Positions 1,457 to 60,118 of a stretch of DNA of 64,000 nt are shown piece by piece. Position 1 is the first letter of the stretch. Every line of letters starts with the position of its first letter. This DNA comes from Motiliproteus sp. (GTDB taxonomy: Bacteria > Pseudomonadota > Gammaproteobacteria > Pseudomonadales > Balneatricaceae): positions 23,462 through 87,461 of the forward strand of contig JBALWH010000007.1 of the NCBI GenBank assembly GCA_036960175.1, given 5' to 3'. The translations under genes were made by a program, and so were the position numbers. The notes under the pieces were generated by a model. That model was not told where the DNA came from. It was given only the letters and a program-made list of their open reading frames with translations, and made no database searches.

Positions 1457-3220
1457 TTATCGTTGGGAAGCGTTCAGCATATGGCTGATCAGTGCTCGTA
1501 ACTTTCCGGGTTTAACCGGTTTGTTCAGCCGGACCAGGCCGCGCTGTTGAAACAGCTGCCGCACCTCATCGCTGCGATCGGCGGTAATCATGATGGTCGG
1601 CGGTAGCTGGCCTATATCTGCATAGATCTGGTCTAGTACGTGCAAACCGGTGAGGTCATGCTCCAGATGGTAGTCGGCGAGAATGATGTCGGGTAACTGT
1701 TGACGGCAAGCATACAGGGCCTGTGCCGTGTCTTCTGCCGCAGTCGTCAACGCGCCCCATTCCTGCAGTAATACCTGCATGCTATGGGTAATGGCCTCTT
1801 CGTTGTCGATGACTAGGATTCTTGCTCCGGTCAAATCTGATGCCATGGCTGGTTGCTGGTTATTGCTGGCCACCAAGGATTGCTGCTCGCTTAGCGGAAC
1901 GATAACGGAAAAACAGGAGCCTTTGCCGACCACGGAGGAGAGTCTTACCGGGTGTTCGAGCATATGAGAAATGCGCTCGACGATGGCCAGCCCTAAACCG
2001 ACTCCCTTATCTCTGCCGCGAACGAAATTCTCCAGCTGTTGGAATTCTCGGAAAATATCCTGCTGGCGATCTTCGGGTATCCCTGGGCCGGTGTCGCATA
2101 TGATGATACGCAGACGCCCTTGCTGACGACGGCAACCCAGTAAAATCCTGCCCTTTGGGGTATAGCGGATGGCATTGCTCAATAGATTGCGCAGTATGCG
2201 CATCAGCAAGCGAGAATCGGAATGGACGATGGCCTGGCTGGCGACCACTGTTAATCGCAGCCCCGCCTTTTTAGCAACAGGTTTGAATTCGGTGCGTAAC
2301 GCTATCAGCAAATCATTGATGGCGAACTCTCGATAATCAGGAGTGATAGCGTTGGCATCCAGTTTGGAGATATCCAGTAGGTCGGTCAGTAGTTCTTCGG
2401 CGCCTAGCAGGGCAACGTGAATTCGATGTACCAGAGTAGTATCGCGCTCCGCTAATTGCCGTTCCTGCAGGGTCGAAACCAGAAGGCGGGCAGCATTGAG
2501 TGGTTGCAGCAGATCGTGGCTGGCAGCCGCCAGGTATTTATCTTTACTCTGGTTAGCCTGTTCGGCCTCTTGTTTGGCCGCTTGCAGTGCTAGCTGAATC
2601 TCTTGTCTATCGGTGATTTCCCCGCGGAGCTGGGTGTTAGCTGAGCGCAGCTCTTTCGTGCGACGGTTTACTCGTTGTTCTAGCGTCGCATTCAGGTTGG
2701 TCAAGCTATTTTGGGCTTTCCTGCGCTCGGTAATATCCTGTACAAAGGCCTCGATCAGGGCGGGGTTGCGGCTTTTCAGTAACACGTTCATCGAAACATC
2801 AACGGCAGCGCCGGAGGGGGTTTTTAGCTGGGTCTCAAAGGCCAGTTTTTTACCCTCTTGCAGTAGTTCTTTCAGCAGCTGCTGATAATCATGATGGCTA
2901 TTGAACAGCTGGTAGCCGATATCCTCGATAGATGCGCAGAGGGTGTCAGTGGATTCGTAGCCGCAGATTGCTGCGATAGCTGGGTTAGCACTGGTGATGG
3001 TGCCATCGATCTCCGCCTGAAAAATACCATGGAGGGCGTTCTCAAATAGCCACTTGTAACGATCTTTTTCCAGCGTCAGTTCATCGATCTTATGCTGCAG
3101 CTCAGGGTAATAGTTTTTACGTGCAGAGAAATCCCCCAGGCCGATCAGGTTTTCGATCAGGGCAGTGTCATCGGAAGGCGTCGATGGTGGGTTTTGGGAA
3201 GGCTTAAAGTGCTTCCTCAT
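1457..3220 (-). CDS. ercS: Hybrid PAS sensor histidine kinase/receiver, ErcS-like
   Basis: SARKNYYPELQ N-terminal motif, PAS, H-box AASHDLLQPL, G-boxes, C-terminal receiver; overlaps the ercA stop. Start at 3220 chosen (track uses 3238). Confidence 0.8.
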   Translation of the reverse strand: MRKHFKPSQNPPSTPSDDTALIENLIGLGDFSARKNYYPELQHKIDELTLEKDRYKWLFENALHGIFQAEIDGTITSANPAIAAICGYESTDTLCASIEDIGYQLFNSHHDYQQLLKELLQEGKKLAFETQLKTPSGAAVDVSMNVLLKSRNPALIEAFVQDITERRKAQNSLTNLNATLEQRVNRRTKELRSANTQLRGEITDRQEIQLALQAAKQEAEQANQSKDKYLAAASHDLLQPLNAARLLVSTLQERQLAERDTTLVHRIHVALLGAEELLTDLLDISKLDANAITPDYREFAINDLLIALRTEFKPVAKKAGLRLTVVASQAIVHSDSRLLMRILRNLLSNAIRYTPKGRILLGCRRQQGRLRIIICDTGPGIPEDRQQDIFREFQQLENFVRGRDKGVGLGLAIVERISHMLEHPVRLSSVVGKGSCFSVIVPLSEQQSLVASNNQQPAMASDLTGARILVIDNEEAITHSMQVLLQEWGALTTAAEDTAQALYACRQQLPDIILADYHLEHDLTGLHVLDQIYADIGQLPPTIMITADRSDEVRQLFQQRGLVRLNKPVKPGKLRALISHMLNASQR

Positions 3221-4367
3221 AAACGACCTCGACATCACGTTTGTTGGATTTGCGGGGGTTGGTGAGGATGCAGGGGTCCTTTACTGCTTTTCTGGATAGT
3301 TCCGGGATATCGGAGCTGCGTACTCCTGCTTCTTTCAGTCGCTGGGTTAAGCCAACATCGCTCTTTAATTTGCGTACCGATTTCAGCAGCTGTTGTTTTA
3401 CCTGCTTTGGCCTCATGCCGCGGACGTCGATACCGACGGTTTCGGCAACAATGCGGAACTTTTCTTCTGACGATGGGAAGTTATAGTCGATGACATGTTC
3501 CAGCAAGATGGCGTTGCAGAGGCCGTGGGGCAGGTCAAGGTGGCCTCCGAGACTGTGAGACATGGCATGAACCGCACCTAGAATCGCATTAGAGAATGCG
3601 AGGCCCGCTTGCATGCTGCCGAGCATTACCTGGCCGCGAAGATGAATATCACTGGGGTCGGCCACCAGCGCTGTGAGATTGCTGGATACCAATTTGATGG
3701 CCTGCAGGGCGTGCATGTCGGTCATAGGGCCGCTGGCCGTCGATACATAAGCCTCAACGGCGTGAACCAGCGCATCGACACCGGTGCAGGCAGTCAGGAA
3801 GGGGTCCATGGTGAGGGTGGTTTCAGGGTCGATCAAAGAGACGTCGGGTACCACGGCTTTGCTGATAATGGATATTTTATTGCGGGTTTCAGGATCGGTA
3901 ATGATGGCGAATTGTGAGACATCTGCAGAGGTGCCGGCGGTGGTGGGGATGAATACCAGCGGTGGAATCGGTGCAGATATCTGGTCGACCCCTTCAAAAG
4001 TCAAAATGTGTCTTGGGTTGGTGCTGATAATGCCGATGCCTTTAGCGCAATCCATGGGGCTGCCGCCGCCGATAGCAACGATCATATTGCAGCCTTCCTG
4101 CTTATAAAATGCTGCGCCTCGCATCACCTCTTCTGCCCGTGGGTTGGGACTTACCTGAGTATAGAGTCGATAGTCGATGCCGACAGCAGCGAGGCTGTCT
4201 TCAACATCCTTCACCCAGCCAGCCGCCTGAACTCCTGGGTCAGATACGATAAGCACGCGTTGGGCGCCAAAGGTGCGGGCAAAGTTGCCGACGGTCTTAC
4301 GGGCGCCAGCACCGAAAACAATTTCAGGGGAAACAAACTTTCTAAGGTTGGTGAAATCAGTGCTCAT
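3204..4367 (-). CDS. ercA: Iron-containing alcohol dehydrogenase family regulatory protein, ErcA-like
   Basis: LRKFVSPEIVFGAG start, GGGSPMD, PTTAGT, DALVH, HAMSHSLGG..LPHG metal ligands; directly upstream of the ercS-like kinase. Start MSTDF at 4367 gives 387 aa. Confidence 0.85.
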   Translation of the reverse strand: MSTDFTNLRKFVSPEIVFGAGARKTVGNFARTFGAQRVLIVSDPGVQAAGWVKDVEDSLAAVGIDYRLYTQVSPNPRAEEVMRGAAFYKQEGCNMIVAIGGGSPMDCAKGIGIISTNPRHILTFEGVDQISAPIPPLVFIPTTAGTSADVSQFAIITDPETRNKISIISKAVVPDVSLIDPETTLTMDPFLTACTGVDALVHAVEAYVSTASGPMTDMHALQAIKLVSSNLTALVADPSDIHLRGQVMLGSMQAGLAFSNAILGAVHAMSHSLGGHLDLPHGLCNAILLEHVIDYNFPSSEEKFRIVAETVGIDVRGMRPKQVKQQLLKSVRKLKSDVGLTQRLKEAGVRSSDIPELSRKAVKDPCILTNPRKSNKRDVEVVYEEAL

Positions 4368-4573
4368 ACGGCGGGCCTGGTTATAGTTCTTCGTTGTTGT
4401 CACTCAGTGATTCGCTGGTAAAAAAGATAACGATGTCTGTTATCTGTCGCTGAGACTCTGTCCTTAGAGTGTCTGATTTTAGCATGCAAATAGGTTAGAC
4501 GGTGGGGCTATCCTGATGATCTGGATTAGCCTTTAGCAGGGGCTTGGAAAAACCCTTAGGAAGCCACAGCGAT

Positions 4574-5365
4574 TTAGGCCAGTTGCTTCTCTGTCGGGCA
4601 AATTTGTATGGAGGGGTTAGTACTCAGGGGTGGGGCTTTGTCACACGTATTTAGCGTCCTTAATTCTTCTTCCATTTTTTGTATATCTTCGGGCGTGCGT
4701 AATGCGGGAGCCAGCGCAGGGCGATATTCTTTGTTCTGGCGAATGGGCAGGCGATCAAAGATAAGTATCCGATCCGCCAATCGCAGGGCCTCGCGGATAT
4801 CGTGAGTCACCAGTAATATGGATAGTTTCGGGTGCTTTTCCCGCAGTAGCTGTAGCTGCTGATAGAGTATTTTCAGGTTGGTCTCATCCAATGATACGAA
4901 AGGTTCATCCATCAGAATCAATTGCGGTTCAATCAACAGGCAGCGAGCTAAAGCCACGCGTCGCGCCATTCCCAGAGATAATTGGGCCGGGTAAAGGTCG
5001 AGGCAGTTCTGCAGCCCCATCTGCTTGAGCAGATGATTGATCTTAGTGTCTAGTCCTTCGCGGAGTGACGGATCTGCTGCGGTTGCTTGGCAGCCCTTGA
5101 CGACTAGTTCGAGGTTTTGCTGTACCGTTCGCCATGGTAGTAAACGGGGTTCCTGAAACATGTAGCTGATGCGATAGTTCTGGGATTGTTCGATGGCACC
5201 CTGGTAGTCGTTGTCGATGCCGGCGATCATATTCAGCAGTGTGGTCTTGCCGCAGCCGGAGGGCCCTAATAGGCACAGTAATTCGCCGCTGGCCAATGAC
5301 ATTTGAAAGTCGTCAAACAGCGTGGCAGAGCCGAAATCTTTTTGTTCTATGTTGACGCTTAGCAT
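4574..5365 (-). CDS. ABC transporter ATP-binding protein (NitT/TauT type)
   Basis: Walker A GPSGCGKT, LSLGMARR signature, LMDEPF; ATG at 5365 overlaps the permease stop. Confidence 0.9.
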   Translation of the reverse strand: MLSVNIEQKDFGSATLFDDFQMSLASGELLCLLGPSGCGKTTLLNMIAGIDNDYQGAIEQSQNYRISYMFQEPRLLPWRTVQQNLELVVKGCQATAADPSLREGLDTKINHLLKQMGLQNCLDLYPAQLSLGMARRVALARCLLIEPQLILMDEPFVSLDETNLKILYQQLQLLREKHPKLSILLVTHDIREALRLADRILIFDRLPIRQNKEYRPALAPALRTPEDIQKMEEELRTLNTCDKAPPLSTNPSIQICPTEKQLA

Positions 5366-6138
5366 GTGCTTGGGTGCCTCCGCCAGCGTTGTTGATGGTT
5401 TTCCAAGGGCTGCAGAATGGTCCATTCGACTAGCTGTACGATTATTATAAAGCTTAGGCTGTAGGCCAGGATAGTGACTACATCAAACATCTGAAATGCT
5501 AGGTGTAGCTGGAATCCAACGCCATCGCTGCGGCCTAGTAATTCCACCACTAATACGATCTTCCAGATCAATGCCAGACCGCTGCGGGCGGCGATCAGAA
5601 AGTAAGGGGCGAGTTGCGGCAGCAGCAGATCTTTAAATCGGCACCAGGCATTGAGTCGATAGACGTGGGCGAGGTCGGTGTAATCAGGGTTTAGATTCTG
5701 GGTGCCTTGGCGCAGGGTGATAACGACGTTTGGAACTTTGTTGATCACCACCGCAATAATAGCGGCGGTTTCAGACAGTCCGATCCAAAGATAAAACAGC
5801 AGAATAATGACCAGTGCAGGAATATTTAGCAACAGTATCAGCACGGGGTCAGCTAGGCGGTTGAAGCCGTCGTAGAGCCCCATGATAATGCCGATCATTG
5901 AGCCAATCAGCATCGCTACGGTGAAGGTGATGACCACCCGCTGCAAGGTCGCACCCAGGTGCAGACTGAGGTCGCCCTTGAGCCACTCTGAGTGTATCGC
6001 CATCACGACTTCCAACGGTCCCGGCAGCAGTGGGTTTTGCAGAAACTGGGCCAGCAGCTGCCAGGCAAGCAGCAAAAGCATCATGGTGATCAACTGTTGC
6101 CTTAGGCTTTTTAGCCATGGTCGGGTAAGCATCTTCAT
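5359..6138 (-). CDS. ABC transporter permease (NitT/TauT type)
   Basis: Multiple TM helices, WKIVLVVELLGRSDGVG motif. Confidence 0.9.
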   Translation of the reverse strand: MKMLTRPWLKSLRQQLITMMLLLLAWQLLAQFLQNPLLPGPLEVVMAIHSEWLKGDLSLHLGATLQRVVITFTVAMLIGSMIGIIMGLYDGFNRLADPVLILLLNIPALVIILLFYLWIGLSETAAIIAVVINKVPNVVITLRQGTQNLNPDYTDLAHVYRLNAWCRFKDLLLPQLAPYFLIAARSGLALIWKIVLVVELLGRSDGVGFQLHLAFQMFDVVTILAYSLSFIIIVQLVEWTILQPLENHQQRWRRHPSTC

Positions 6139-6157
6139 TATTGCCTGCAGCCGTTAC

Positions 6158-7183
6158 TTATTGGGTTGGCGTTTGCTGTTCGGACCAGAAAGTATCTGGG
6201 TCTAGCTGTTGATGCTTGCCCATTAGCTCCGAGCCGCCGATGCCAGCAAGCAGGGTAAACATCTGCTGTGCTTGTTGTTGGAGCTTAGCAGACAGGGGGG
6301 TTGGGATGCCGGCCAAATAGCCGGCCTTAAGTCGTTCAAATACGGCCGTGGTTTTAGCACCCATTAGCGGGCGGAGTCGTTGCCAGGCATCCGGCTGGTC
6401 ACGAAGGTGATATTTGCTTTGCATTGAGGCGGCTTGCAGGGCTTTGACGCGGTCGGGGTATTGTTGTGCCCACTGCTGATGGAACACCAGCCCTAGCATG
6501 GGTAAGTCGTTATCCAGCCCCAGCTGTGCGCTTATCTGTTTTAGATCTAGCAGGCTTCTATGACCTTTGCCTTCGAGTCGGGCGGCGTAGTGCCAGAATG
6601 TCAGCACCGCATCTATTTGGCCCCGTTCCAGAGCGGCATTCAATAGCGGCGGGGCGGCGAATTGCTGCTGGCTGCTTTGCTTAAGATCAAATCCTTGCTG
6701 CAGGGCACCGGCGCGTAACAGTAGCCAGCCTTTGTCAGCCGGTCCACCGGCAATACCAATGCGCTTGCCTTTAAGATCGGCCAAAGATTCGATGGCGGAG
6801 CCCTTAGGCACCATTAGCTTACCGATGGAGGATGAATAGGGAATGAACTGTAGCGGGATGCCTCGATTTCTCTGCTGGGAAACCCAAATCCAATCCGCGA
6901 CAATGACATCGGCACTACGGCTCATCAGCGCCGTGCGGGTAGCGGTCATGCTGGCCAGGGCTATGGTCTTCAGTCGGAAACCGGATTTCTCGTCAAAGTG
7001 CTGGTGGGCCATGGTGTCGAGCTCCCAGTTAAGGGTGCCGAACTTCAGGGTCGCGACTCGTATTTCGGGCAGTGGTTGTGACTCATCTGACCAGGCCGGG
7101 CGGACGGCGCCGAAGACCAGCATGCTGATTAGCAGTCCGGCACTAAAGACCTTATTGAGCGTGTTTGCTGTGTTCATTTCCAT
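6158..7183 (-). CDS. ABC transporter substrate-binding protein (NMT1/THI5-like)
   Basis: Signal peptide, GTLNWEL motif, LADLKGKRIGIAGG; first gene of the ABC operon. Confidence 0.85.
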   Translation of the reverse strand: MEMNTANTLNKVFSAGLLISMLVFGAVRPAWSDESQPLPEIRVATLKFGTLNWELDTMAHQHFDEKSGFRLKTIALASMTATRTALMSRSADVIVADWIWVSQQRNRGIPLQFIPYSSSIGKLMVPKGSAIESLADLKGKRIGIAGGPADKGWLLLRAGALQQGFDLKQSSQQQFAAPPLLNAALERGQIDAVLTFWHYAARLEGKGHRSLLDLKQISAQLGLDNDLPMLGLVFHQQWAQQYPDRVKALQAASMQSKYHLRDQPDAWQRLRPLMGAKTTAVFERLKAGYLAGIPTPLSAKLQQQAQQMFTLLAGIGGSELMGKHQQLDPDTFWSEQQTPTQ

Positions 7184-7387
7184 CTCCTGAAACAGCCGCT
7201 ACTCGGCACCAGAGACAGGTTCGTGTAATGGAGGTCCGGGGGAGGGTGCTTTGTTCTACAATAAGGCGGTCAGCAGGATGAAAGTATAGTACTTTCGGGT
7301 CCTTATGAGGGCTCAAAGGTAGGATGGCCGAAATGTCTAAAAGAGGTTCTAATAGATTTGAGTATCAATAATAAAAGGAGTAGCTTC

Positions 7388-8191
7388 ATGTTAGCTTCGA
7401 ATGACGCAGCCCAGAGTATGGATGCTGTAGCGAGTGACGATGGAGTCTTGGTCCCAGGTGTTTCTGGCGTCGTTAATGAAGCGGACACTACAACAATGAA
7501 CGGGGTGCTTCCTTCTGTGTATAAATTGCTAATTGCCGATGATCATCCGCTCTTTCGTGAAGCTATTGCTGATGTTATTTGCAGTCGCTATCCTGATGCT
7601 GAAATCCTTGAGTCGGACACTCTTGAGTCGGCACTGGAGACTGCTCAGCGCTACGATGATCTGGATCTAATTCTGCTGGATCTTAATATGCCCGGAATGA
7701 ATGGGCTAAACGGACTGATGCAGCTTCGTAATGAAGCACCTTCCATTCCGGTGGTGATTGTTTCTGCAGAAGAAGAGAAAAGCATTGTTTTGCAGGCGAT
7801 GACGTATGGCGCTGTCGGATTTATTATCAAATCCTTAGCTCGAGAGAAGATGACAGATGCTCTGGATCAAGTTTTGGCGGGTCAGGTCTATCTACCCTCC
7901 GATGTTATACGATCGTCTCAGCCCAGCACGCGTTCCAGCTCTCACCGTCAGTCTGATGATAAACAGCTACCGCCAGAATTGTTAAATAGTCTGACTCGTC
8001 GTCAACTGTTGGTGCTGGAACGCATGGCTAGCGGTGAATCCAACAAGCAGATCGCCTATAAACTGAATATTGCTGAAACGACGGTTAAAGCTCATGTGTC
8101 TGCGATACTAAGAAAGCTTAAAGTTCATAACCGTATTCAGGCCGCACTGGCCGCCGGTAATATCGATTTTAATCAGTATTTGAAACGCTGA
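7388..8191 (+). CDS. agmR: NarL/LuxR-family response regulator AgmR (ErbR)-like, with N-terminal extension
   Basis: From [17 protein letters not shown] to [11 protein letters not shown] it closely follows P. aeruginosa AgmR/ErbR as recalled. AAGGAG lies 7 nt before ATG 7388; alternative start is GTG 7517. Confidence 0.8.
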
Positions 8192-8245: not shown

Positions 8246-10888
8246 CTATTCTGACTGGTCTTTGGCTCCTTGGCTGAGCATGTGCTGAACTAACGCTTTC
8301 AGTTTTGCAGGGCGCACAGGTTTATTCATCATGTTGTAACCCAGCGCGCGCACTTCTTGTTTTAACTCATTGCTATAATTTGCTGTGATCATTAGAACCG
8401 GAGCGTCTAGGCGTAACTCCTGGCGAATCCGCTGGGCGGCTTCTAAGCCGGTTTTTCCGTTATCCAGGTGGTAATCGGCGATCAGCATATCGATTCCCGC
8501 TTTCAGTTCTGGCTGCTGTGCTACTTCCTCGTAGGAGGTGGCGGTGAAGACTATGCACTTCCAACTTGTTAAAAGTGTTTCCATGGCTTCACAAATACTG
8601 AGTTCGTTGTCGACTACTAGTATGCGTTTTCCTGCAAAGCTATAGTGGGCCGAGCTGTCATAGCTGTTGGATGGCAGCGGTTGTGTTCTGGGTAAGGTGC
8701 CGTAAGGGATTTGCACGGAGAAGCAAGATCCGCGTCCGGGTGCTGAGCGCACGGATATCTTGCAGCTGAGGATTTTTGCCATTTTTTCAACGATCGCCAG
8801 ACCAAGTCCCAGGCCTTTGTCGCGGGCGGAGTTGTCATCGTGAATACGATTAAACTCCTGGAAAATTTCCTCCAGTTTGTCCTCGGGAATACCGATACCG
8901 GTGTCACAGACTTCGATAGCCAGTACGCCTGCCTGTCTGCGGCACCCTAGCATGACCTTGCCGGCAGGGGTGTAGCGTATGGCGTTGCTGAGGAAGTTCC
9001 TAAGGATGCGGGCCAGTAGCTGTGAATCGGATGCGATCACTGCTGATGAGGAGACGAACTCAAACTCCAGTCCAGCATCGTTAGCAAGTGTTTGGAATTC
9101 GTTCGCTAGGTTGTCGAGCAGGTCGCCGGCGTTAAAGGCAGTGATATCTGGTTTTACTGCACCGGCATCCAGTTTGGATATATCTACCAGAGCGGCCAGT
9201 AGCGATTCCACGTCTTCCAGTGAGAAATTGAGAGAGTTGACCAGTCGTCGGGTGCGATCACAGAGGTCATGTTCCATCAGCGAGGCGGCGAATAGCCGTG
9301 CTGCGTTCATCGGTTGCAATAGGTCGTGGCTAGCAGCGGCCAGGAATTTGGTTTTGCTGGTGTTGGCGTGCTCCGCTTCTTTGGTGGCCTCTCGCAGTCG
9401 CGCTTCGATCTTTCGGCGTTCCTGGATATCTTCCAGCATCTGCAGATTGAGTGTCGTCAGCTCAGCGGTCCGCTCGGTGACTCGTTGCTCCATGTTCTGA
9501 TAGGCATTGCGGAGTTCTTCGGCAGTAATACGTTGTTCGGTTATATCCTGAATCAGCACATAGAAGCCCTCTACCTGCTGATTGTCACCGAACTGTGGAA
9601 CATAGGACTTCAGTACATAACGTTTTTTTCCGTCCGGTGTGGGTTCATCAATCTCAAAACTGACTGCCTCCCCTTTCAAGGCGCGTTTGACATAAGGGCG
9701 CAGGCGTTTCAGTTGTTTTTCCGGCAGCACATCCACCAGCTTATGTTCCAATACCTTCTTGCGATCGAGCTGATACCAAGTCTCGTAGGCGCGGTTGGTA
9801 AACTTGAAGGTCAGGTCACTATCGACATAGGCGATAAGGGCCGGTACGGCATCGGTGATCAGGCGAATTCTATGCTCGCTATCCGCTAGTGCTTTGGCAG
9901 ACCGGCTGCGTTCGGTGATGTCGGTGTAGGTGTTAACATACTGGCCATTGGGCATGGGGTGTGTCTTGATTTCAAGGACTCGGCCGTTGGACAGCTGCTG
10001 CTCCATTTCTCTGCTACGTTTTCCGTGCTTATTACTGCTGACGGGTTTTAGATCTTCTACCTCGGTGGCAGCCATCAGCTTGCTGATGCTCAGTCCCGAT
10101 GTGACGTTTTTGCGATCAAGCCCCGCAATTTCGATAAAGCGTTCGTTCCAAGTTTCGAGCTGTTGCTGGTCATTTACCAGAATGACGCCTTGGGACAGGT
10201 TGTCGAGGGTATTTTGTAGAATGGTGGATTTGTTCGCCAGCGCTTTTTCTCGCACTGCGCGCTCATTCTCCATCAGCGTGGTGATGTCTTTGTACAGCAC
10301 CACCATGCCGCCATCGCCGGTATAGCGCTCGCTAATCTGCAGCCAGTTGCCATTGGCTAAACGGTATACTTTACCGTCACTCTGCAGGGACTTGTTCTTC
10401 CAGTGTTGCTGACCATCAGCTCCTTGAAAATGGTAGTCGATCAGCTTCATCCGCTGGGATAATTCCTTGATCTCCCGCTGATGAATTCCAGGTTCGATTT
10501 TGACGCCAGAATTGCGCCAGAACTCGCTGAATTTGGTGTTACACAGCAGCATGCGCTGGTCTTTGTCATAAAGAACAAAGGCATCGGAAATACTTTCGAT
10601 GGCTTCTATTAAATATTGGTGTGCGGTCTGAGCGACATTGTTAGCATGTTTCAGGGCCTGGTTGCTGTGTTTAAGATCGGCCAGTGCAGCGTTCAGGGCG
10701 GCGGTACGTTCGTGGACCTGCTCGGCCAGAAATACCGCGTGTTCAAAGTTTCCGTAGGGGCCGTACTTATCGTTGGATCCGGCTTCTACCCGCTCTATCA
10801 GTGCCTGATTTATTTTCTTAAGCTTGCTGTTTTCCTGCTCGAGCTGTGCAAGCTGGGCTTTCAGGATTTTGGTCTCTGATTCAGCCAA
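8246..10888 (-). CDS. nahK: Multi-PAS hybrid sensor histidine kinase, NahK-like
   Basis: Several PAS domains, AASHDLLQPM H-box, receiver domain; TTG at 10888 with GGAGG RBS overlaps the nosP stop. Confidence 0.8.
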   Translation of the reverse strand: MAESETKILKAQLAQLEQENSKLKKINQALIERVEAGSNDKYGPYGNFEHAVFLAEQVHERTAALNAALADLKHSNQALKHANNVAQTAHQYLIEAIESISDAFVLYDKDQRMLLCNTKFSEFWRNSGVKIEPGIHQREIKELSQRMKLIDYHFQGADGQQHWKNKSLQSDGKVYRLANGNWLQISERYTGDGGMVVLYKDITTLMENERAVREKALANKSTILQNTLDNLSQGVILVNDQQQLETWNERFIEIAGLDRKNVTSGLSISKLMAATEVEDLKPVSSNKHGKRSREMEQQLSNGRVLEIKTHPMPNGQYVNTYTDITERSRSAKALADSEHRIRLITDAVPALIAYVDSDLTFKFTNRAYETWYQLDRKKVLEHKLVDVLPEKQLKRLRPYVKRALKGEAVSFEIDEPTPDGKKRYVLKSYVPQFGDNQQVEGFYVLIQDITEQRITAEELRNAYQNMEQRVTERTAELTTLNLQMLEDIQERRKIEARLREATKEAEHANTSKTKFLAAASHDLLQPMNAARLFAASLMEHDLCDRTRRLVNSLNFSLEDVESLLAALVDISKLDAGAVKPDITAFNAGDLLDNLANEFQTLANDAGLEFEFVSSSAVIASDSQLLARILRNFLSNAIRYTPAGKVMLGCRRQAGVLAIEVCDTGIGIPEDKLEEIFQEFNRIHDDNSARDKGLGLGLAIVEKMAKILSCKISVRSAPGRGSCFSVQIPYGTLPRTQPLPSNSYDSSAHYSFAGKRILVVDNELSICEAMETLLTSWKCIVFTATSYEEVAQQPELKAGIDMLIADYHLDNGKTGLEAAQRIRQELRLDAPVLMITANYSNELKQEVRALGYNMMNKPVRPAKLKALVQHMLSQGAKDQSE

Positions 10889-12062
10889 CGCCGGACCTCC
10901 CGATGGCAATACCAGTAAACGTCTGGTTTAAATGCAGGCCGTCAAATTGTTCACCATAAGTGTTAAAGCCGATTACTTTGTTGCGCTCGAGAATTTCGGA
11001 GGCTTGAGACGTTAATCCCAGGTGTTCGATTTCGAGACGGCGGAAGACGCAGTCGCAGCCAATGACCAGCTGCGGAGGGCCTATTTTCCGGCAGATATCG
11101 TCGAACAGGTGTTCCAGGCCTTCTAGTATGTTAGCGGCCTTAGAGCGAGTGAGTACGATACCGTTTTCAACCGCGCAGTAAAAATCGAGGCTCTGGTCAT
11201 CGTTAACTTTTTGGATGGCGCGGGGGTAGTAACGCTCGCCAATTCGAACCGAAAGAGGATTTAGGGCAAAAACCGAGGGATTCAGTTGCTCGACACTTAA
11301 TCCTAACGACTCCGCATATTCTAGGGCCGCAGGAGCAGCGTTGAATTCATAGACCCTGCGGGCCTCGCAATCGGCGTGGGTGATGACTAGTTTTTCATCG
11401 GTATTCATCAGATGGTCGATACTGAATACTTCAAACTGACAGCTGGTGTTCACCAAAATCAGGATCGCGGCATCGGAATAGAACGTGCCGTTAAAATACA
11501 CGTGGGTGTCTTTAAAGCAGAGATCATCACCGGCTGATCCACCCAGTAAAGGAATACTTCCTAAATTGGCGCTAAGGGCATTCAATAGTTGTTCTTCGCG
11601 GACCGATAGGCCGTCCAGCAGTGCTAGCGCAAAGGTGTGGCCTCTGATCGGGGCGACCTGATGCTTTTGGCACCGATCCAACATGCCGTGGACTAAGGTT
11701 TGTACCTCAGTAAAGGTGGTCTCGGTAAGGTTGCGGAACAGTGATAATTCGATAGAAAATTGCGTCTTGCAAAAGCCGATGGCCGTTATACTGCCTCTGC
11801 TGTATCCAAGGGGCGTTATTTCTCCGGCAGTGGTGCAGCCGACGACAGGAAGGTCTCCGAATCGCTGTTGCAATGCTTGAGAAAGTTCTTGTAATTCATA
11901 GTCCGTGGAGCAGAAAAATACAACTAGGCTTAAATCGCCGTGCTGAAGTTCGCTATGCAGATCTTTCGCGGCCTGCGAAGGATCGATGTTGTTAGATACG
12001 GCCGTGAATATAGGCCCTGCTTTGTTCAAATCATGTGCCAGCACGTGTTTTTCCTGCATCAT
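10881..12062 (-). CDS. nosP: FIST-domain NO-sensing heme protein, NosP-like
   Basis: FIST motifs GCTTAGEI, GGSAGD, GCDCVFRRLE, GFNTYGEQFDGLHLNQTFTG; coupled to a hybrid kinase. Confidence 0.85.
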   Translation of the reverse strand: MMQEKHVLAHDLNKAGPIFTAVSNNIDPSQAAKDLHSELQHGDLSLVVFFCSTDYELQELSQALQQRFGDLPVVGCTTAGEITPLGYSRGSITAIGFCKTQFSIELSLFRNLTETTFTEVQTLVHGMLDRCQKHQVAPIRGHTFALALLDGLSVREEQLLNALSANLGSIPLLGGSAGDDLCFKDTHVYFNGTFYSDAAILILVNTSCQFEVFSIDHLMNTDEKLVITHADCEARRVYEFNAAPAALEYAESLGLSVEQLNPSVFALNPLSVRIGERYYPRAIQKVNDDQSLDFYCAVENGIVLTRSKAANILEGLEHLFDDICRKIGPPQLVIGCDCVFRRLEIEHLGLTSQASEILERNKVIGFNTYGEQFDGLHLNQTFTGIAIGRSGVG

Positions 12063-13012: not shown

Positions 13013-13249
13013 ATGAGAGTCTTCTTTCTCGTCGTATCTATTTTGCTGCTAACTGGTTGTGCTTCGGTCTTTGACGTAAAAGATAAATACTATGTCTGTT
13101 ACTACGGGGAGAAAAAGAAGGAGCTCTGTGAAAGTACGGTTGTGCCTGAGGACGATGAGCGGGCTTGTGTCGATTTGGCAGATGATTTTGAGTTTTCCGA
13201 AGGTGACTGCAATAAGAAGATAGGGCAATCAAAGCTGCACTTTTTTTAA
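13013..13249 (+). CDS. Small Cys-containing lipoprotein, unknown function
   Basis: Lipobox LTGC, GAGG RBS, four further Cys residues. Confidence 0.65.
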   Translation: MRVFFLVVSILLLTGCASVFDVKDKYYVCYYGEKKKELCESTVVPEDDERACVDLADDFEFSEGDCNKKIGQSKLHFF

Positions 13250-13281: not shown

Positions 13282-13327
13282 TGTTCTGATATGGTGCGGT
13301 GTGACTCTTGCGCACTCGACTGGGGCG
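13282..13327 (+). promoter_or_regulatory. Two putative NtrC-type enhancer sites
   Basis: TGTTCTGATATGGTGCG (13282-13298) and CGCACTCGACTGGGGCG (13311-13327) partially match TGCACCAWWWTGGTGCA; about 105-150 bp upstream of a sigma54 promoter. Confidence 0.45.
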
Positions 13328-13430
13328 AGGGTTGTTTTGATTTGAGGTTGTTTGAATGATTTCCCAGCCTGTATTTCTCTAATGAGTATGTTTCTGGTCA
13401 TTACTAGGGGTTAGTGAACGTTTTTTAAAC

Positions 13431-13446
13431 TGGCACAATGCTTGCT
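13431..13446 (+). promoter_or_regulatory. sigma54 (-24/-12) promoter
   Basis: TGGCAC-AATGC-TTGCT, exact consensus spacing. Confidence 0.8.
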
Positions 13447-13494
13447 AAATCAGAGGGTATCTGAATCTAAAAGTATTGAATTGAGAGTCAGCTG

Positions 13495-14457
13495 ATGAAT
13501 ACCAGTGCTGCTAAAGTTTCTGCCATCAACAGTCAAGAACCGGCCTCCCCTTACTATGCCTGTTGCTCTTTGTATCGCCAGCGCTTGGAAGTCATTTCTC
13601 TAATTAAGCAGCTGAGCCAATTGGCTATCGCGGTGCAGCAGCACCGTGGTCTCAGTATGGCTGTTTTGGCGGGTGACTCAGGATTTGAGCGAGAGTTCGA
13701 GTTGCTACAATTGCAATTGGATCGGCGTATCGCGGTACTAGAGTCTTTTGCTGCACAATCAAGCCATCTATTGACTGAGACCGAGCAAGTTAATCTGGTT
13801 AATGCCTGGATGACACTTAAGAGTGGTTGGCAGGAAGATCAGGTGATGGATAACTTTGAGCTTCATTGCCACTTTATCGACCAGTTGTTATTGCTGATGA
13901 ATCAGCTGGCAAGGCGTTTGGAGCGGCCTATGTCGGATCATTTGCGGGAGTCTGGTTCCGGTTTTAAAGCTGAATCTTGGGTTAACTCCACGGGCAATGG
14001 CCAGCACCTGATTAAGCAGCTGGGGTTGCTGGCCTTCGTCTGTAAGCAGATGCCGGACCTTATCGAATTGGTGGCGAAGGTTCGGGGTTTGGCCACTCAT
14101 GCGATGATTGTTGGCCGCTGTGAAGCGCGTTATGGGCAGAAACTTCGATACCTCCTTGGTTGTGCTAAGGCGCAGCGCGAAAAACTCAATCTTGGTATTA
14201 TTCGCGTGAGTGAAACGGCTAGAGAGCAAATTCCTTCCTTACCTATGATCAAAACCTACGACATTAAGTTGCTGTATATGATCGATAAAGTGGAACGAGA
14301 AGTGCTGACTTCAAACGTAATTGTTGACGATCAGCATCAGTTTTTCGAGCTAGGCTCGCAGATTATCGATGTTTATGTCGGAGTGGTTAATCAGGGCTTG
14401 GATATGCTGCAGTGTTGGCAGGAGCAGCAGTTGGAGGAGTGGCTGGTAAAGGGCTGA
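13495..14457 (+). CDS. Stand-alone nitrate/nitrite-sensing (NIT) domain protein
   Basis: Helical protein with AVQQHRGLS and ELVAKVRGLA, resembling the two Arg-containing NIT motifs; no TM, ANTAR, kinase or MCP domain. Confidence 0.65.
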   Translation: MNTSAAKVSAINSQEPASPYYACCSLYRQRLEVISLIKQLSQLAIAVQQHRGLSMAVLAGDSGFEREFELLQLQLDRRIAVLESFAAQSSHLLTETEQVNLVNAWMTLKSGWQEDQVMDNFELHCHFIDQLLLLMNQLARRLERPMSDHLRESGSGFKAESWVNSTGNGQHLIKQLGLLAFVCKQMPDLIELVAKVRGLATHAMIVGRCEARYGQKLRYLLGCAKAQREKLNLGIIRVSETAREQIPSLPMIKTYDIKLLYMIDKVEREVLTSNVIVDDQHQFFELGSQIIDVYVGVVNQGLDMLQCWQEQQLEEWLVKG

Positions 14458-57052: not shown

Positions 57053-58018
57053 TTAAGGCACTATTACCGCATTGGCAAAGTCGACCGCTGGAAGGGAGGA
57101 TTTGAGATGATCCAGAGTACGCTCATTGATCAATAAACGGCTGGTCTTGGCCTCATAGATGCCCATTTGTTGCAGTGACTCGCCCTTATAGTGGCGATCC
57201 AGCAGGCTGGCGGCCACGCGCCCGAGGTCGTAGTAGTCCGGCACGAAGCCGATCAGCACGCCGTTATCAATGTATGTTCGCTGGGCGCCAATGCTGATTA
57301 ACCGGGTCTGCTGTAGCGCCTGACCAATCTTAGCGGCCTGGGATATCAGATAGCTATCCATGGGTAGATACACGGCATCGACCGCAATGGCATGGCTACT
57401 CAGTTGCTGTAGATAGTGGTCTAGGCGGTTGGATTCCGGCGGGCAGCGCAGTTCGATAACCGCTATGTCAAACTGCTTGGCAACTTCTATTAATTTGATC
57501 CGGGTAAGCTCGGAATTGCGTTCCCGGGGGTTGAAGAAAAAGCCTAGACGTTTAATCGCCCCCATTTTTAGCGCTGCCTGCAGTTGCGACTGCAAGGGCA
57601 GTTGATGGCTGACACCGCTGAGGTTACCGCCGCTGTGTTGCAACGAGTCGACAATGCCTGAGCCCACCGGGTCCAGCACAATATTGAACAGGTGCGGGGT
57701 GTGGTTGCTAATGATCTGCTTGACCATCTTGGTGGCGGTGGTGCCAAAAGAGTAGATATAGTCGCTTTTTCTGAGGTTATCGAGATCACTTCGCAGCAAG
57801 TTAGCGAGATCTTTGCGTTGTTGGTTAGCGTTGAGAAGATGGTAATTGACTTGATAACCACGGGCTTTAAGGCCATCGCGAAAACCACGCTCGGCCTCTG
57901 TCTCTCCGCGCCAAAGCACCATGGTTACGTCCAGCGCAATGGGCCCCGCAGCACTATTCTGCAGTACTTGTGGTATTAGCAGCAACAATATTAGTAATGA
58001 ATTTATGATGGTTTTCAT
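57053..58018 (-). CDS. Orphan ABC-type substrate-binding protein
   Basis: Signal peptide; IYSFGTTAT, NLSGVS, LGFFFNPRERNS, PDYYDLGRVAA pattern; no permease or ATPase adjacent. Confidence 0.85.
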   Translation of the reverse strand: MKTIINSLLILLLLIPQVLQNSAAGPIALDVTMVLWRGETEAERGFRDGLKARGYQVNYHLLNANQQRKDLANLLRSDLDNLRKSDYIYSFGTTATKMVKQIISNHTPHLFNIVLDPVGSGIVDSLQHSGGNLSGVSHQLPLQSQLQAALKMGAIKRLGFFFNPRERNSELTRIKLIEVAKQFDIAVIELRCPPESNRLDHYLQQLSSHAIAVDAVYLPMDSYLISQAAKIGQALQQTRLISIGAQRTYIDNGVLIGFVPDYYDLGRVAASLLDRHYKGESLQQMGIYEAKTSRLLINERTLDHLKSSLPAVDFANAVIVP

Positions 58019-58063: not shown

Positions 58064-60001
58064 TTAAACCCGGAACCGACTCATCGCTGTTTTGAGGCCA
58101 TCGGCCACGGTGACCAATGCCAGGGAGCTGCGGCGGCCTTCCTGCACCGAAGATACCGTGATGTGTGCCGCGTCGCTGATGCTTAGTAGATTATTGTTCA
58201 CATCGTTAGCCACCTGGGTTTGTTGTTCGGTCATGGCAGCGATACTGGTGGTCATGTCGCTGAGATGCTTAATCGAGCTGCTGATGCTATTCAGCTGCTG
58301 GTCGGTCTGGGCAATGGCCTCGATGCCGATACCCGCCTGTTCACAGACATTATGAGTGACATTCACGGCTTCACGAGTGCCAGCCTGTAGCTTCTCAATG
58401 CTCAGTTGAATGTTCTCAGTGGATTGCTGGGTCTTGCTGGCCAGGGTGCGGACCTCATCGGCAACCACGGCAAAGCCACGACCGCTCTCACCGGCCCGAG
58501 CGGCTTCAATGGCGGCGTTGAGGGCCAGCAGATTGGTCTGTCCGGCGATCTCCTTGATGACATCCAGGACTAGGCTGATTTCACTGCTTTGCTTGGACAC
58601 TTCATTGACCACTGCAGAAGCGTTCTGCAGATCATTGACCAGTTTTTGAATTAGCATGCGTACTTCATTAGAGGTCTCCAGGCTGCTTTCGGCGGATTGT
58701 TGGATGCTGCTGACATGCTCCAGATTATTCTGGGTTTCCTCAGTAACACTTTGCACTGCCTTAACCATTTCGTTCATGGCCATGCTGACCTGGCTGATAT
58801 CGTTGTTTTGTTGTTCTGCTCGATTTTCCATATCCTGGCATAGATTGCTGAGGCTATCGCTCTGACTGGATGTCTCGCTGGCCGCTTGGTTGGCGTCTCT
58901 AACAATGCCCTGGATCTTTTCAATAAACAGGTTGATGACTCTGGCCATATCGCCGATTTCATCTTTGCTGTTAATGTCGATGCGATGGGTGAGGTTGCCT
59001 TCACCTTCGCTCAGGCATTTCAATGATGCGGTGAGCAGCTGCAATTTGCTGATAATACTGATGCGCATCACCACCAGAATCCCTATGACCATAGCGACTG
59101 CCATGCCCAGAAGGGTCATTAGCAAAGAGGTCATAAGATGGGATGATCCCGATTCAATGAGTGCTTCGGCCTGACTGAGGGTGGTTTCCATATCCTGCTG
59201 GATCTTCTCCAGATTGGCGGATAACCGTGTCGACGTGGCGGCGGCCTCCTGCACGATGGCCTGTCGGACCTGACTGTTGGTGGAAGTGGTTAGCTCACCA
59301 AAACTGACTTGTAATCCGGCCGCAGCTTCCCGGGCTTGTTGGTTGGACAGCCCCAGTACCACACGACCCAGAGTCTGGTCGTTAAGGCTGATCGGTTGTT
59401 CACTGAGCACTAGGCCGTCGTCATTAAGGCCTTTTTTCAGTAACTCAGGAAGTGCTTGCCGAGCATCGGCTCCCTTCAGCAGTCGCGTCATCTGTTGATT
59501 GTCTGTGTCGCTGTAGTGGCCAATCAATTCGCCGCTGCTATCCACAACGGCGGCAAATAGCAGGTTTTCAGTATCGCTGAGCGCCCCCAGGGTTGCCTTA
59601 ATAGATGCGATATCACCGTCATACAGCGGCTCTGCGGTAATCCGGGCCAGTAGTGCGGTGAGAGAGTCTGCAGTGCTGACTAAGGCGCTGTCCAGCAAAC
59701 TAGCAGCCTTCATCTGTTCCATCGCCAGTGACATGGTCAGTGTCTGTGTCAGGCTTTCCTCGGTGCTGTATGCCAGCGAGGTCATGGTTTGTTTTACCTG
59801 TTTGCTGCTGGACTGCAGCTGATCGCTGGCATTCTTATTTTGCTTTTTTAGCTTTTCAACGGTGCTGCCAACCAACTGGCCGACACTGATTTCGGTGATG
59901 CCCATCACCATTGCACCCTGCACCAGGGTGATCAGTATGACGGCGATAAAGAAGGGTAGGAGTAAGCGGCTTTTAAAGCTCATTAGCAGAGATTTCAACA
60001 T
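58064..60001 (-). CDS. Methyl-accepting chemotaxis protein
   Basis: Two TMs, [35 protein letters not shown] signalling hairpin. Confidence 0.96.
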
Positions 60002-60102: not shown

Positions 60103-60118
60103 AGCAATCCCAGTGCCA
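60103..60118 (-). promoter_or_regulatory. sigma54 (-24/-12) promoter of the MCP-SBP operon
   Basis: Minus strand TGGCAC-TGGGA-TTGCT, about 100 nt upstream of the MCP start. Confidence 0.75.

Follow-up and report, generated by a model that had tools for sequence, protein, structure and literature searches.

A family of soluble, output-less NIT-fold proteins with a predicted sigma-54 promoter in Motiliproteus and Cellvibrionaceae

NIT is one of the few dedicated sensor domains for nitrate and nitrite, and to our knowledge all studies of it concern forms that carry a fused output, such as NasR. This protein of Klebsiella oxytoca (PDB 4AKK) is a one-component nitrate/nitrite-responsive antiterminator built of a NIT and an ANTAR domain. 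In a second described system, NasS–NasT of Paracoccus, Pseudomonas and Azotobacter, the antiterminator is a separate ANTAR protein, which is sequestered by a soluble sensor of nitrate and nitrite (PMC3795266). Here we analyse a gene on a stretch of 64,000 nucleotides (nt) from Motiliproteus sp. (GCA_036960175.1, contig JBALWH010000007.1, positions 23,462–87,461 of the forward strand; in the following, the window is this whole stretch). The gene codes for a soluble protein of 320 amino acids (aa) which has the NIT fold and no output domain, and it is preceded by an exact match to a sigma-54 promoter.

A preliminary description of this DNA had taken a fused output as the normal state of NIT domains and had named NasR and McpN as examples. 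Two points have to be revised. According to the title of PMC6381276, McpN senses nitrate through a PilJ domain and not through NIT. In addition, a profile of the family retrieves 1029 clusters at 50% identity (E≤1e-3), and among the best 150 of these nearly all are 280–340 aa long and ∼130 are without a hydrophobic terminal segment. Output-less NIT-like proteins are themselves common. The locus belongs to a large family of soluble proteins of this kind, and our literature searches did not turn up any work on a soluble NIT protein that stands alone.

The NIT fold and its signature arginines

The coding sequence comprises positions 13495–14457 of the + strand. It starts with an ATG, and 7 nt before this codon a Shine–Dalgarno-like GAGAG can be read from the sequence (13483–13487, +). 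The gene is real, conserved, and under purifying selection. Compared with the Motiliproteus orthologue, the proportion of nonsynonymous differences (pN) is 0.17 and the synonymous sites are saturated (pS 0.77); the selection on the gene is therefore strong. The database version of the protein begins at the TTG of Leu43 and has 278 aa. Since residues 19–42 are conserved in the family, with R30 and L36–Q39 nearly invariant in the 27-member alignment, we regard the 320-aa start as right and the database version as too short. As first described, the protein is soluble and carries no transmembrane (TM) segment and no output domain. Its maximal Kyte–Doolittle hydropathy over 19 residues is 1.38 and thus stays below the cut-off of 1.6 for a membrane segment. 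A Pfam scan gives a weak match to NIT (PF08376; residues 42–89, E 0.023, 15.5 bits) and nothing else; an ANTAR domain is absent by the same scan and the protein stops after a linker-like helix. NCBIfam contains neither a match for the protein nor a model for the family.

A Pfam search and a structure prediction had been proposed as checks of the NIT assignment. The Pfam score of the window protein lies below the gathering threshold of 24.9 bits, but NIT is found at E≤1 in 26 of the 27 family members, and six relatives exceed the threshold (P0005, P0009, P0010, P0011, P0013, and P0014; 25.8–29.7 bits). Their matches jointly span both halves of the domain, namely profile positions 1–123 (residues ∼43–153) and 125–234 (residues ∼182–298). 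Comparison of the family profile with the profile of ∼320-aa Pfam-positive NIT proteins by hhalign yielded a probability of 99.6% (E 1e-24, 254 columns). The AlphaFold model, with a predicted local distance difference test score (pLDDT) of 86.9 and a predicted template modelling score (pTM) of 0.85, is all-helical. It contains eight long helices, seven of 21–40 residues and one of 17, and one short helix; the protein forms two four-helix bundles followed by a C-terminal helix (residues 280–319). When this model was compared with the PDB by Foldseek, the top matches were 4akk_A and 4akk_B, that is NasR (probability 1.0, TM-score 0.61–0.64, 307–315 columns). NasR is also the sole meaningful match, as the next ones are unrelated helical proteins with a TM-score of 0.4 or less. 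We conclude that the 320-aa protein is homologous to NIT and shares its fold.

Three members of the family (P0009, P0011, and P0013) bear the name “lytic murein transglycosylase” in NCBI and UniRef. No SLT, MltA or similar domain is detectable, and for P0009 Pfam gives NIT alone and NCBIfam nothing. It appears that this name is a propagated error.

The Foldseek alignment to NasR spans nearly the whole protein and takes in the C-terminal helix, whose counterpart in NasR connects to the ANTAR domain. This would fit a decaying remnant of a NasR-type regulator minus its ANTAR domain, and a nitrate buffer or store, as had been considered in the preliminary description, can be discussed together with it. 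We consider both to be extremely improbable. The strong purifying selection, the length that is kept in at least 109 species and the hundreds of distant clusters speak against a remnant, and a protein with a single binding site whose promoter is tightly regulated would be ill-suited for storage; the buffer found no support.

Two NIT signatures are recognized in alignments. Signature 1 in helix 1 reads V47-Q-Q-H50-R51-G52-L-S-M55 (13633–13659, +) and signature 2 in helix 5 reads K195-V-R197-G-L-A-T-H-A203 (14077–14103, +) and is preceded by the invariant E191. Both arginine-containing motifs, VQQH-R51-GLSM and KV-R197-GLATHA, had been noticed before. In a broad alignment of 81 diverse sequences, down to ∼17% identity, R51, E191, and R197 are the only invariant internal residues; Q48, H50, G52, G60, W105, and H124 are nearly invariant. 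In the 27-member family Q48, H50, R51, G52, and M55 are invariant, and so are D119, N120, E122, L123, and H126 of a motif of the family's own, DNFELHxH.

Signature 1 aligns to PQHRGMAN and signature 2 to GQARGMGTG of the Pfam-positive NIT proteins. In NasR, signature 1 corresponds to E49-R50-G51, as the primers given in PMC9581486 imply the wild-type peptide LQC-E-R-G-ASN and thus the classic E-R-G motif. The counterpart of signature 2 is found in helix 5 of NasR, which carries Q174-E175-R176 (PMC7496416). Judged by the motif alignment and these NasR peptides, R51 and R197 correspond to R50 and R176 of NasR, whose alanine substitutions, named R50A and R176A, make NasR unresponsive to nitrate (PMC9581486). 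The primers for the substitution “R49A” in the same study, and apparently also those for “R176A”, alter the codon before the arginine, and “R49” would be a glutamate; this point of numbering bears solely on the mapping of NasR residues onto the family. By analogy with NasR, R51 and R197 are expected to lie in one pocket. They would point into the cleft that separates the two four-helix bundles, like R50 and R176 of NasR, and this is most likely where a small nitrogen oxyanion, for instance nitrate or nitrite, would be bound.

Nevertheless, the fold and the promoter could be as described and the ligand could be another small anion or a metabolite, in which case the protein would report a different nutritional or stress state. 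We regard this explanation as unlikely. It draws on the glutamates preceding both arginines in NasR (E49 and E175), which are replaced in the family by the invariant His50 and by a hydrophobic residue (Val or Ile) at position 196. Ligand specificity is therefore not simply transferable from NasR, and the DNFELHxH motif with its invariant residues, next to the nearly invariant H124, adds to this. Moreover, nitrate assimilation genes are lacking near the NIT gene in Cellvibrionaceae as well as in the window. On the contrary, the Pfam-positive membrane-anchored relatives described below likewise have H-R and A-R at these positions, and they are encoded beside HPP-family, Rrf2, and globin genes. 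The loss of the glutamates is therefore a trait of the subfamily and no ground for its exclusion. A remote soluble member is encoded directly after an ntrCD-type transporter operon, and the two arginines which are essential in NasR are invariant here. Thus, of the earlier proposal of a nitrate/nitrite sensor, the fold and both arginines hold, whereas the ligand is not established; nitrate or nitrite appears to us a plausible ligand, though not quite a probable one. Should the ligand prove to be something other than nitrate, the chemistry known for the NIT fold would be extended by this family.

The sigma-54 promoter and its activator

The exact sigma-54 (−24/−12) promoter TGGCAC-AATGC-TTGCT, which had been pointed out before, is present at positions 13431–13446 (+), 48 nt before the ATG. 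Given the distance that is usual between a −12 element and the start of transcription, this start is predicted near 13457, which would leave a 5′ untranslated region (5′UTR) of ∼38 nt. Matches to TGGCACN5TTGCW are rare, as two are found in the window compared with 0.07 expected. The other one, TGGCAC-TGGGA-TTGCT (60103–60118, − strand), is located ∼100 nt upstream of a gene for a methyl-accepting chemotaxis protein (MCP) of 645 aa (58064–60001, −), which is followed by a gene for a 321-aa secreted-looking protein (57053–58018).

Relatives of the gene were collected by a scan of one genome per GTDB species, which revealed at least 109 loci and as many species; the following counts refer to the best 80 of these 109. 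TGGCA[CT]-N5-TTGC is present within 400 nt upstream of the orthologue in 65 of the 80 loci, and when one more position of the pattern is relaxed 74 upstream regions qualify. The density of the motif amounts to 1.6/kb upstream of the gene compared with 0.0125/kb elsewhere in the same loci on both strands, a 129-fold enrichment. A remote soluble subgroup has TGGC[AG]C-N5-TTGC or a close variant in six of eight metagenomic loci (four of six distinct ones). No sigma-54 promoter was seen upstream of the membrane-anchored NIT-only genes. As the promoter is conserved in the orthologues and in the remote soluble subgroup, sigma-54 dependence is a predicted trait of the family, and this promoter type is its single most conserved feature. 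Judged from the sequences, it is very likely that the NIT gene depends on sigma-54 in vivo.

We propose that RNA polymerase with sigma-54 transcribes the gene. A promoter of this type needs an enhancer-binding activator, which in the clade of the window would most plausibly be NtrC, and the NIT protein would then be a product of nitrogen limitation. We tested for the pattern of the NtrC regulon, that is tandem TGCACCA-N3-TGGTGCA about 100–170 bp from the promoter. The two NtrC-like sites of the preliminary description are located at 13282–13298 (TGTTCTGATATGGTGCG) and at 13311–13327 (CGCACTCGACTGGGGCG). In site 1 the right half-site is good and the left one degenerate, and its centre is at about −167 from the predicted start; site 2, 29 bp from site 1, has the core GCAC-N7-GGGC with one mismatch, is weak and is not conserved in the closest relative. 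The sequences are there, but each site agrees with TGCACCAnnnTGGTGCA at 9 of the 14 specified positions, and the best score in shuffled upstream DNA averages 8.3 of 14. Between the putative enhancer and the promoter extends an AT-rich spacer (13330–13430; 36% G+C compared with 51% in the window), in which no consensus for IHF was found within one mismatch.

The upstream regions of the window's clade align solely at the promoter and at one further element, which coincides with site 1. At the orthologous position the metagenome-assembled genome (MAG) of another Motiliproteus has TGCACTCATATGGTGCG with 11 of 14 positions and an exact GCAC-N7-GTGC core, two metagenomic relatives have CGCACTTATATCGTGCT and TGCACAGGTTTTGTGCT, and the dyads of loci L089–L091 are exact or near-exact; the version of the window is the degenerate TGTTCTGATATGGTGCG. 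Among the 74 upstream regions five contain the exact core (0.375 expected) and 28 contain it with up to one mismatch (10±3 expected). The exact core is carried by L009, L089, and L090, including the nearest relatives of the window at the orthologous position, and by the distant L021 and L064; one of these two sites in distant lineages is an excellent AGCACCAATATGGTGCA.

In Cellvibrionaceae the NtrC half-site TGCACCA is strongly enriched on the coding strand downstream of the promoter (65 copies compared with 8.8 expected, and three on the other strand). These copies are found in loci L013–L088 at +25 to +175 from the sigma-54 promoter. One is located in the 5′UTR and another falls within the coding sequence, on the codons for a conserved Ala-Pro, the preceding codon usually ending in T. 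Ala-Pro is encoded by GCA-CCA in 54 of 64 loci, although the gene-wide usage of the two codons is 24% and 29%. The constraint thus acts at the nucleotide level; it is absent from the clade of the window.

A connection of NtrC with NIT genes is independently supported by Methylomonas DH-1, in which nitrogen limitation induces a gene coding for a protein with nitrate/nitrite sensing domains, and a ChIP-exo peak of NtrC is located close to this gene (PMC12799797). By eye, we saw no NorR-type GT-N7-AC triplets upstream of the window gene. Of the nitrogen-starvation induction through NtrC suggested earlier, the sigma-54 promoter is borne out across the family, whereas NtrC is not established as the activator; for this gene we consider the arguments for and against NtrC to be evenly balanced.

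Sigma-54 systems often encode their own protein-level modulators, as in the cases of Psp and Nif. With the promoter type as the most conserved feature of the family, the protein could be a feedback anti-activator which binds the enhancer-binding protein of its own promoter in a ligand-dependent manner, like PspA on PspF or NifL on NifA. However, no GAFTGA motif of an enhancer-binding protein is encoded in the window, no gene for such a protein is linked in the flanks of the relatives, and the fold does not resemble that of PspA or NifL. We therefore regard a feedback anti-activator as improbable.

Relatives, neighbouring genes, and possible partners

Among the best 80 loci the carriers are nearly all Cellvibrionaceae (Cellvibrio, Saccharophagus, Marinagarivorans, Teredinibacter, Gilvimarinus, Marinimicrobium, Exilibacterium, and Thalassocella), together with Motiliproteus-like genomes. 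The nearest relative in the scan is the Motiliproteus MAG with 75% identity, and a database search gave 27 clusters of full-length relatives with 33–75% identity.

The more distant, Pfam-positive members are organized differently. They are ∼320 aa long with the layout TM–NIT–TM, and in three of three loci their gene overlaps by 4 nt a gene for a ∼390-aa MCP-signal protein that has two N-terminal membrane helices and no periplasmic sensor. These split chemoreceptor operons are found at L092 5844–7987, L093 5832–7966, and L094 5811–7945; the source names their NIT proteins “nitrate- and nitrite sensing domain-containing protein” or “methyl-accepting chemotaxis protein”. In all three loci a gene for an HPP-family membrane protein is convergent with the pair, and L093 contains Rrf2, globin, and ferredoxin-reductase genes in addition. 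Thus, the TM–NIT–TM branch demonstrably uses a separately encoded output. In the window no MCP gene adjoins the NIT gene, the only one found being 45 kb away.

In L101 (74–5780) a remote soluble NIT-like gene directly follows nrtA-like, ntrB-like, ntrCD ATPase, and porin genes; the ATPase matches TIGR01184 with 351.9 bits (cut-off 291.8) and the porin is of the Opr/alginate-export type. A porin gene of the same type is located just downstream of the NIT-like gene in L095. Given L101, the split chemoreceptor loci and the NosP/NahK neighbourhoods described next, genes for nitrate, nitrite or nitric oxide (NO) recur beside members of the superfamily.

The preliminary description had stated that no nitrate genes are nearby. 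This is correct within ±6 kb, but a NO-related pair was missed. nosP (10881–12062, −; NCBIfam NosP 547.8 bits, cut-off 450) overlaps a gene for a nahK/ercS′-type hybrid histidine kinase (8246–10909, −; NahK/ErcS C-terminal model 526 bits, cut-off 400). The pair is divergent from the NIT gene at a distance of 1.4 kb, comprises the nearest signalling genes and is found at the same place in the Motiliproteus MAG. It is a candidate partner of the NIT protein, the link being inferred from this position. The protein could then be an accessory sensor of the NosP/NahK phosphorelay, binding the NahK-type kinase and adding a nitrate/nitrite input to the NO input of NosP. Since NahK already takes its input from the separately encoded NosP, the kinase is built for input in trans, and the nitrogen-oxide theme would be coherent. 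On the other hand, the adjacency is limited to two closely related genomes and may be plain synteny, a NosP or kinase gene is not found within 3 kb in any of the 80 Cellvibrionaceae-type loci, and the genes belong to separate transcription units with different promoter types. For these reasons we judge an accessory role in this phosphorelay to be distinctly unlikely.

Next to the nosP/nahK-type genes a LuxR-family response regulator similar to ErdR is encoded (7358–8191, +). The region 1457–4403 (−) codes for ErcA (616 bits), a regulatory protein resembling alcohol dehydrogenases, and for a second hybrid kinase of the NahK/ErcS family, which is an ethanol-oxidation-type regulatory cluster as in Pseudomonas. 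An ATP-binding cassette (ABC) transporter at 4574–7183 belongs to the sulfonate/taurine/nitrate superfamily and reaches no substrate-specific cut-off. We considered it as a nitrate transporter and rejected this, as all nitrate-specific models remain below cut-off and the best matches are of the phosphonate, sulfonate, and taurine types.

The gene order of a small lipoprotein gene, the NIT gene and a convergent greB is shared by the window, L001/L002, and L089–L091. In the window the first gene (13013–13249, +) codes for a 78-aa lipoprotein-like protein with a signal peptide and an LTGC lipobox; it has no match in Pfam or NCBIfam and is located outside the sigma-54 transcription unit, so that it is of contextual value only. 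Relative to the window, the Motiliproteus MAG (L001 7414–12073) has three genes inserted between the NIT-like gene and greB, coding for a 438-aa phage-integrase-like, a 910-aa Integrase_2, and a 201-aa protein, and this insert looks like a mobile element with a recombinase trio.

In one subclade of Cellvibrionaceae the NIT gene is divergent from leuS-lptE-holA. A different arrangement is found in 41 of the 80 loci, where pldA, the gene of outer-membrane phospholipase A (PF02253, 326.6 bits), follows on the same strand at a distance of 0–143 nt (in one locus with an overlap of 26 nt). The carriers are Cellvibrio, Gilvimarinus, Marinimicrobium, and unnamed genera; in L049, for example, the NIT-like gene at 3019–3987 is followed by pldA from ∼4096 onward. 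Beyond pldA there is often a gene pair for DUF1631 and PilZ proteins or a DUF3833 gene. This linkage persists while the outer flanks differ, and in C. mixtus the interval from the NIT-like gene to pldA is without a predicted terminator, which might point to a role in the envelope or in lipid metabolism together with the phospholipase. Yet the window, the Motiliproteus clade and the subclade with adjacent leuS all lack pldA, the gap before pldA contains a predicted sigma-70-like promoter, and there is no obvious direct contact between a cytoplasmic sensor and an outer-membrane enzyme. A role connected with pldA is thus very improbable.

A free NIT receptor among the known systems

Taken together, we suggest that the window gene codes for a cytoplasmic stand-alone NIT-fold sensor of a nitrogen oxyanion which is expressed from a sigma-54 promoter under the control of NtrC and which signals in trans to a partner. 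As the protein has no output domain, ligand binding would be relayed by protein–protein contact to a separately encoded partner, and this contact would probably be made by the long C-terminal helix in place of the NIT-to-ANTAR linker of NasR. Candidates for the partner are the neighbouring NahK-type kinase, a NasT-like antiterminator, and the cognate enhancer-binding protein. Action in trans had already been proposed. It is the natural reading of an output-less sensor and has a precedent in the membrane-anchored NIT relatives with their sensor-less MCP, but a conserved linked partner is missing; by analogy to this precedent we consider signalling in trans as rather probable.

Several observations weigh against this proposal as a whole. 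The score of the window protein fell short of the Pfam threshold for NIT, and NasR was not retrieved from the PDB by any of the sequence searches, whether the query was the protein, either of two family profiles, or a Pfam-positive relative. With both glutamates replaced and a motif of its own, the pocket has a different chemistry and the ligand may therefore not be nitrate. Nitrate assimilation genes are not found within ±6 kb of the NIT gene, and no signalling partner gene is conserved beside it across genera. Concerning the activator, the two NtrC-like sites of the window alone are not above chance, since their scores are close to the best ones of shuffled DNA; most loci of Cellvibrio and other Cellvibrionaceae show no NtrC dyad upstream, and an unbiased 4-mer dyad scan of 72 upstream regions yielded no single family-wide enhancer motif, its top matches mostly mirroring the kinship of Cellvibrio species. 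Finally, the sequencing runs in which we found the window sequence are all of metagenomic DNA, without an RNA-seq run among them. In view of these points we put forward the reading in its entirety only tentatively, as somewhat short of probable.

The family gives access to two questions, namely by what route a single-domain sensor signals when no partner is linked to it, and how nitrogen oxyanions are perceived by polysaccharide-degrading gammaproteobacteria of sea and soil that live on nitrogen-poor substrates. In addition, a protein that is small and soluble could serve as a scaffold for a nitrate/nitrite biosensor, as NasR has (PMC9581486).

A further step would be to regard the protein as a third, hitherto undescribed architecture for the cytoplasmic perception of nitrogen oxyanions, beside the fused NIT–ANTAR protein NasR and NasS–NasT: a free NIT receptor, induced through sigma-54 and NtrC, that docks onto an unlinked effector with its C-terminal helix. 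This is conceivable, but we hold it to be doubtful. If true, NIT would be a detachable sensor module in general, as the membrane-anchored relatives use it likewise together with sensor-less chemoreceptors.

NasR is likewise cytoplasmic, and it shares with the window protein the double four-helix-bundle fold of NIT followed by a long helix as well as the arginines equivalent to R50 and R176. In contrast to NasR, the window protein has no ANTAR domain, has 14–15% identity to it, and has His and Val/Ile in place of the glutamates before the arginines; its gene is not located beside nitrate assimilation genes and has a sigma-54 promoter. With NasS–NasT the window protein would have in common a soluble sensor without output that acts on a separate effector and is expressed under nitrogen control. 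NasS, however, has the NrtA-like fold of periplasmic binding proteins and not the NIT fold, and it forms one transcription unit with NasT, whereas the NIT gene of the window has no ANTAR gene linked to it. The membrane-anchored NIT-only proteins are homologous and agree in their length of ∼320 aa, in the H-R-G and x-R-G motifs, in KLRYL and in the lack of an output domain of their own. Unlike the soluble window protein, which has no linked partner, they have a TM helix at the N- and at the C-terminus, a periplasmic NIT domain, and an overlapping partner gene. Like NosP and H-NOX, which regulate separate kinases, the window protein is proposed to be a single-domain sensor acting in trans; these two differ from it in fold and ligand chemistry, and their genes are normally in one operon with the kinase, whereas the NIT gene is monocistronic.

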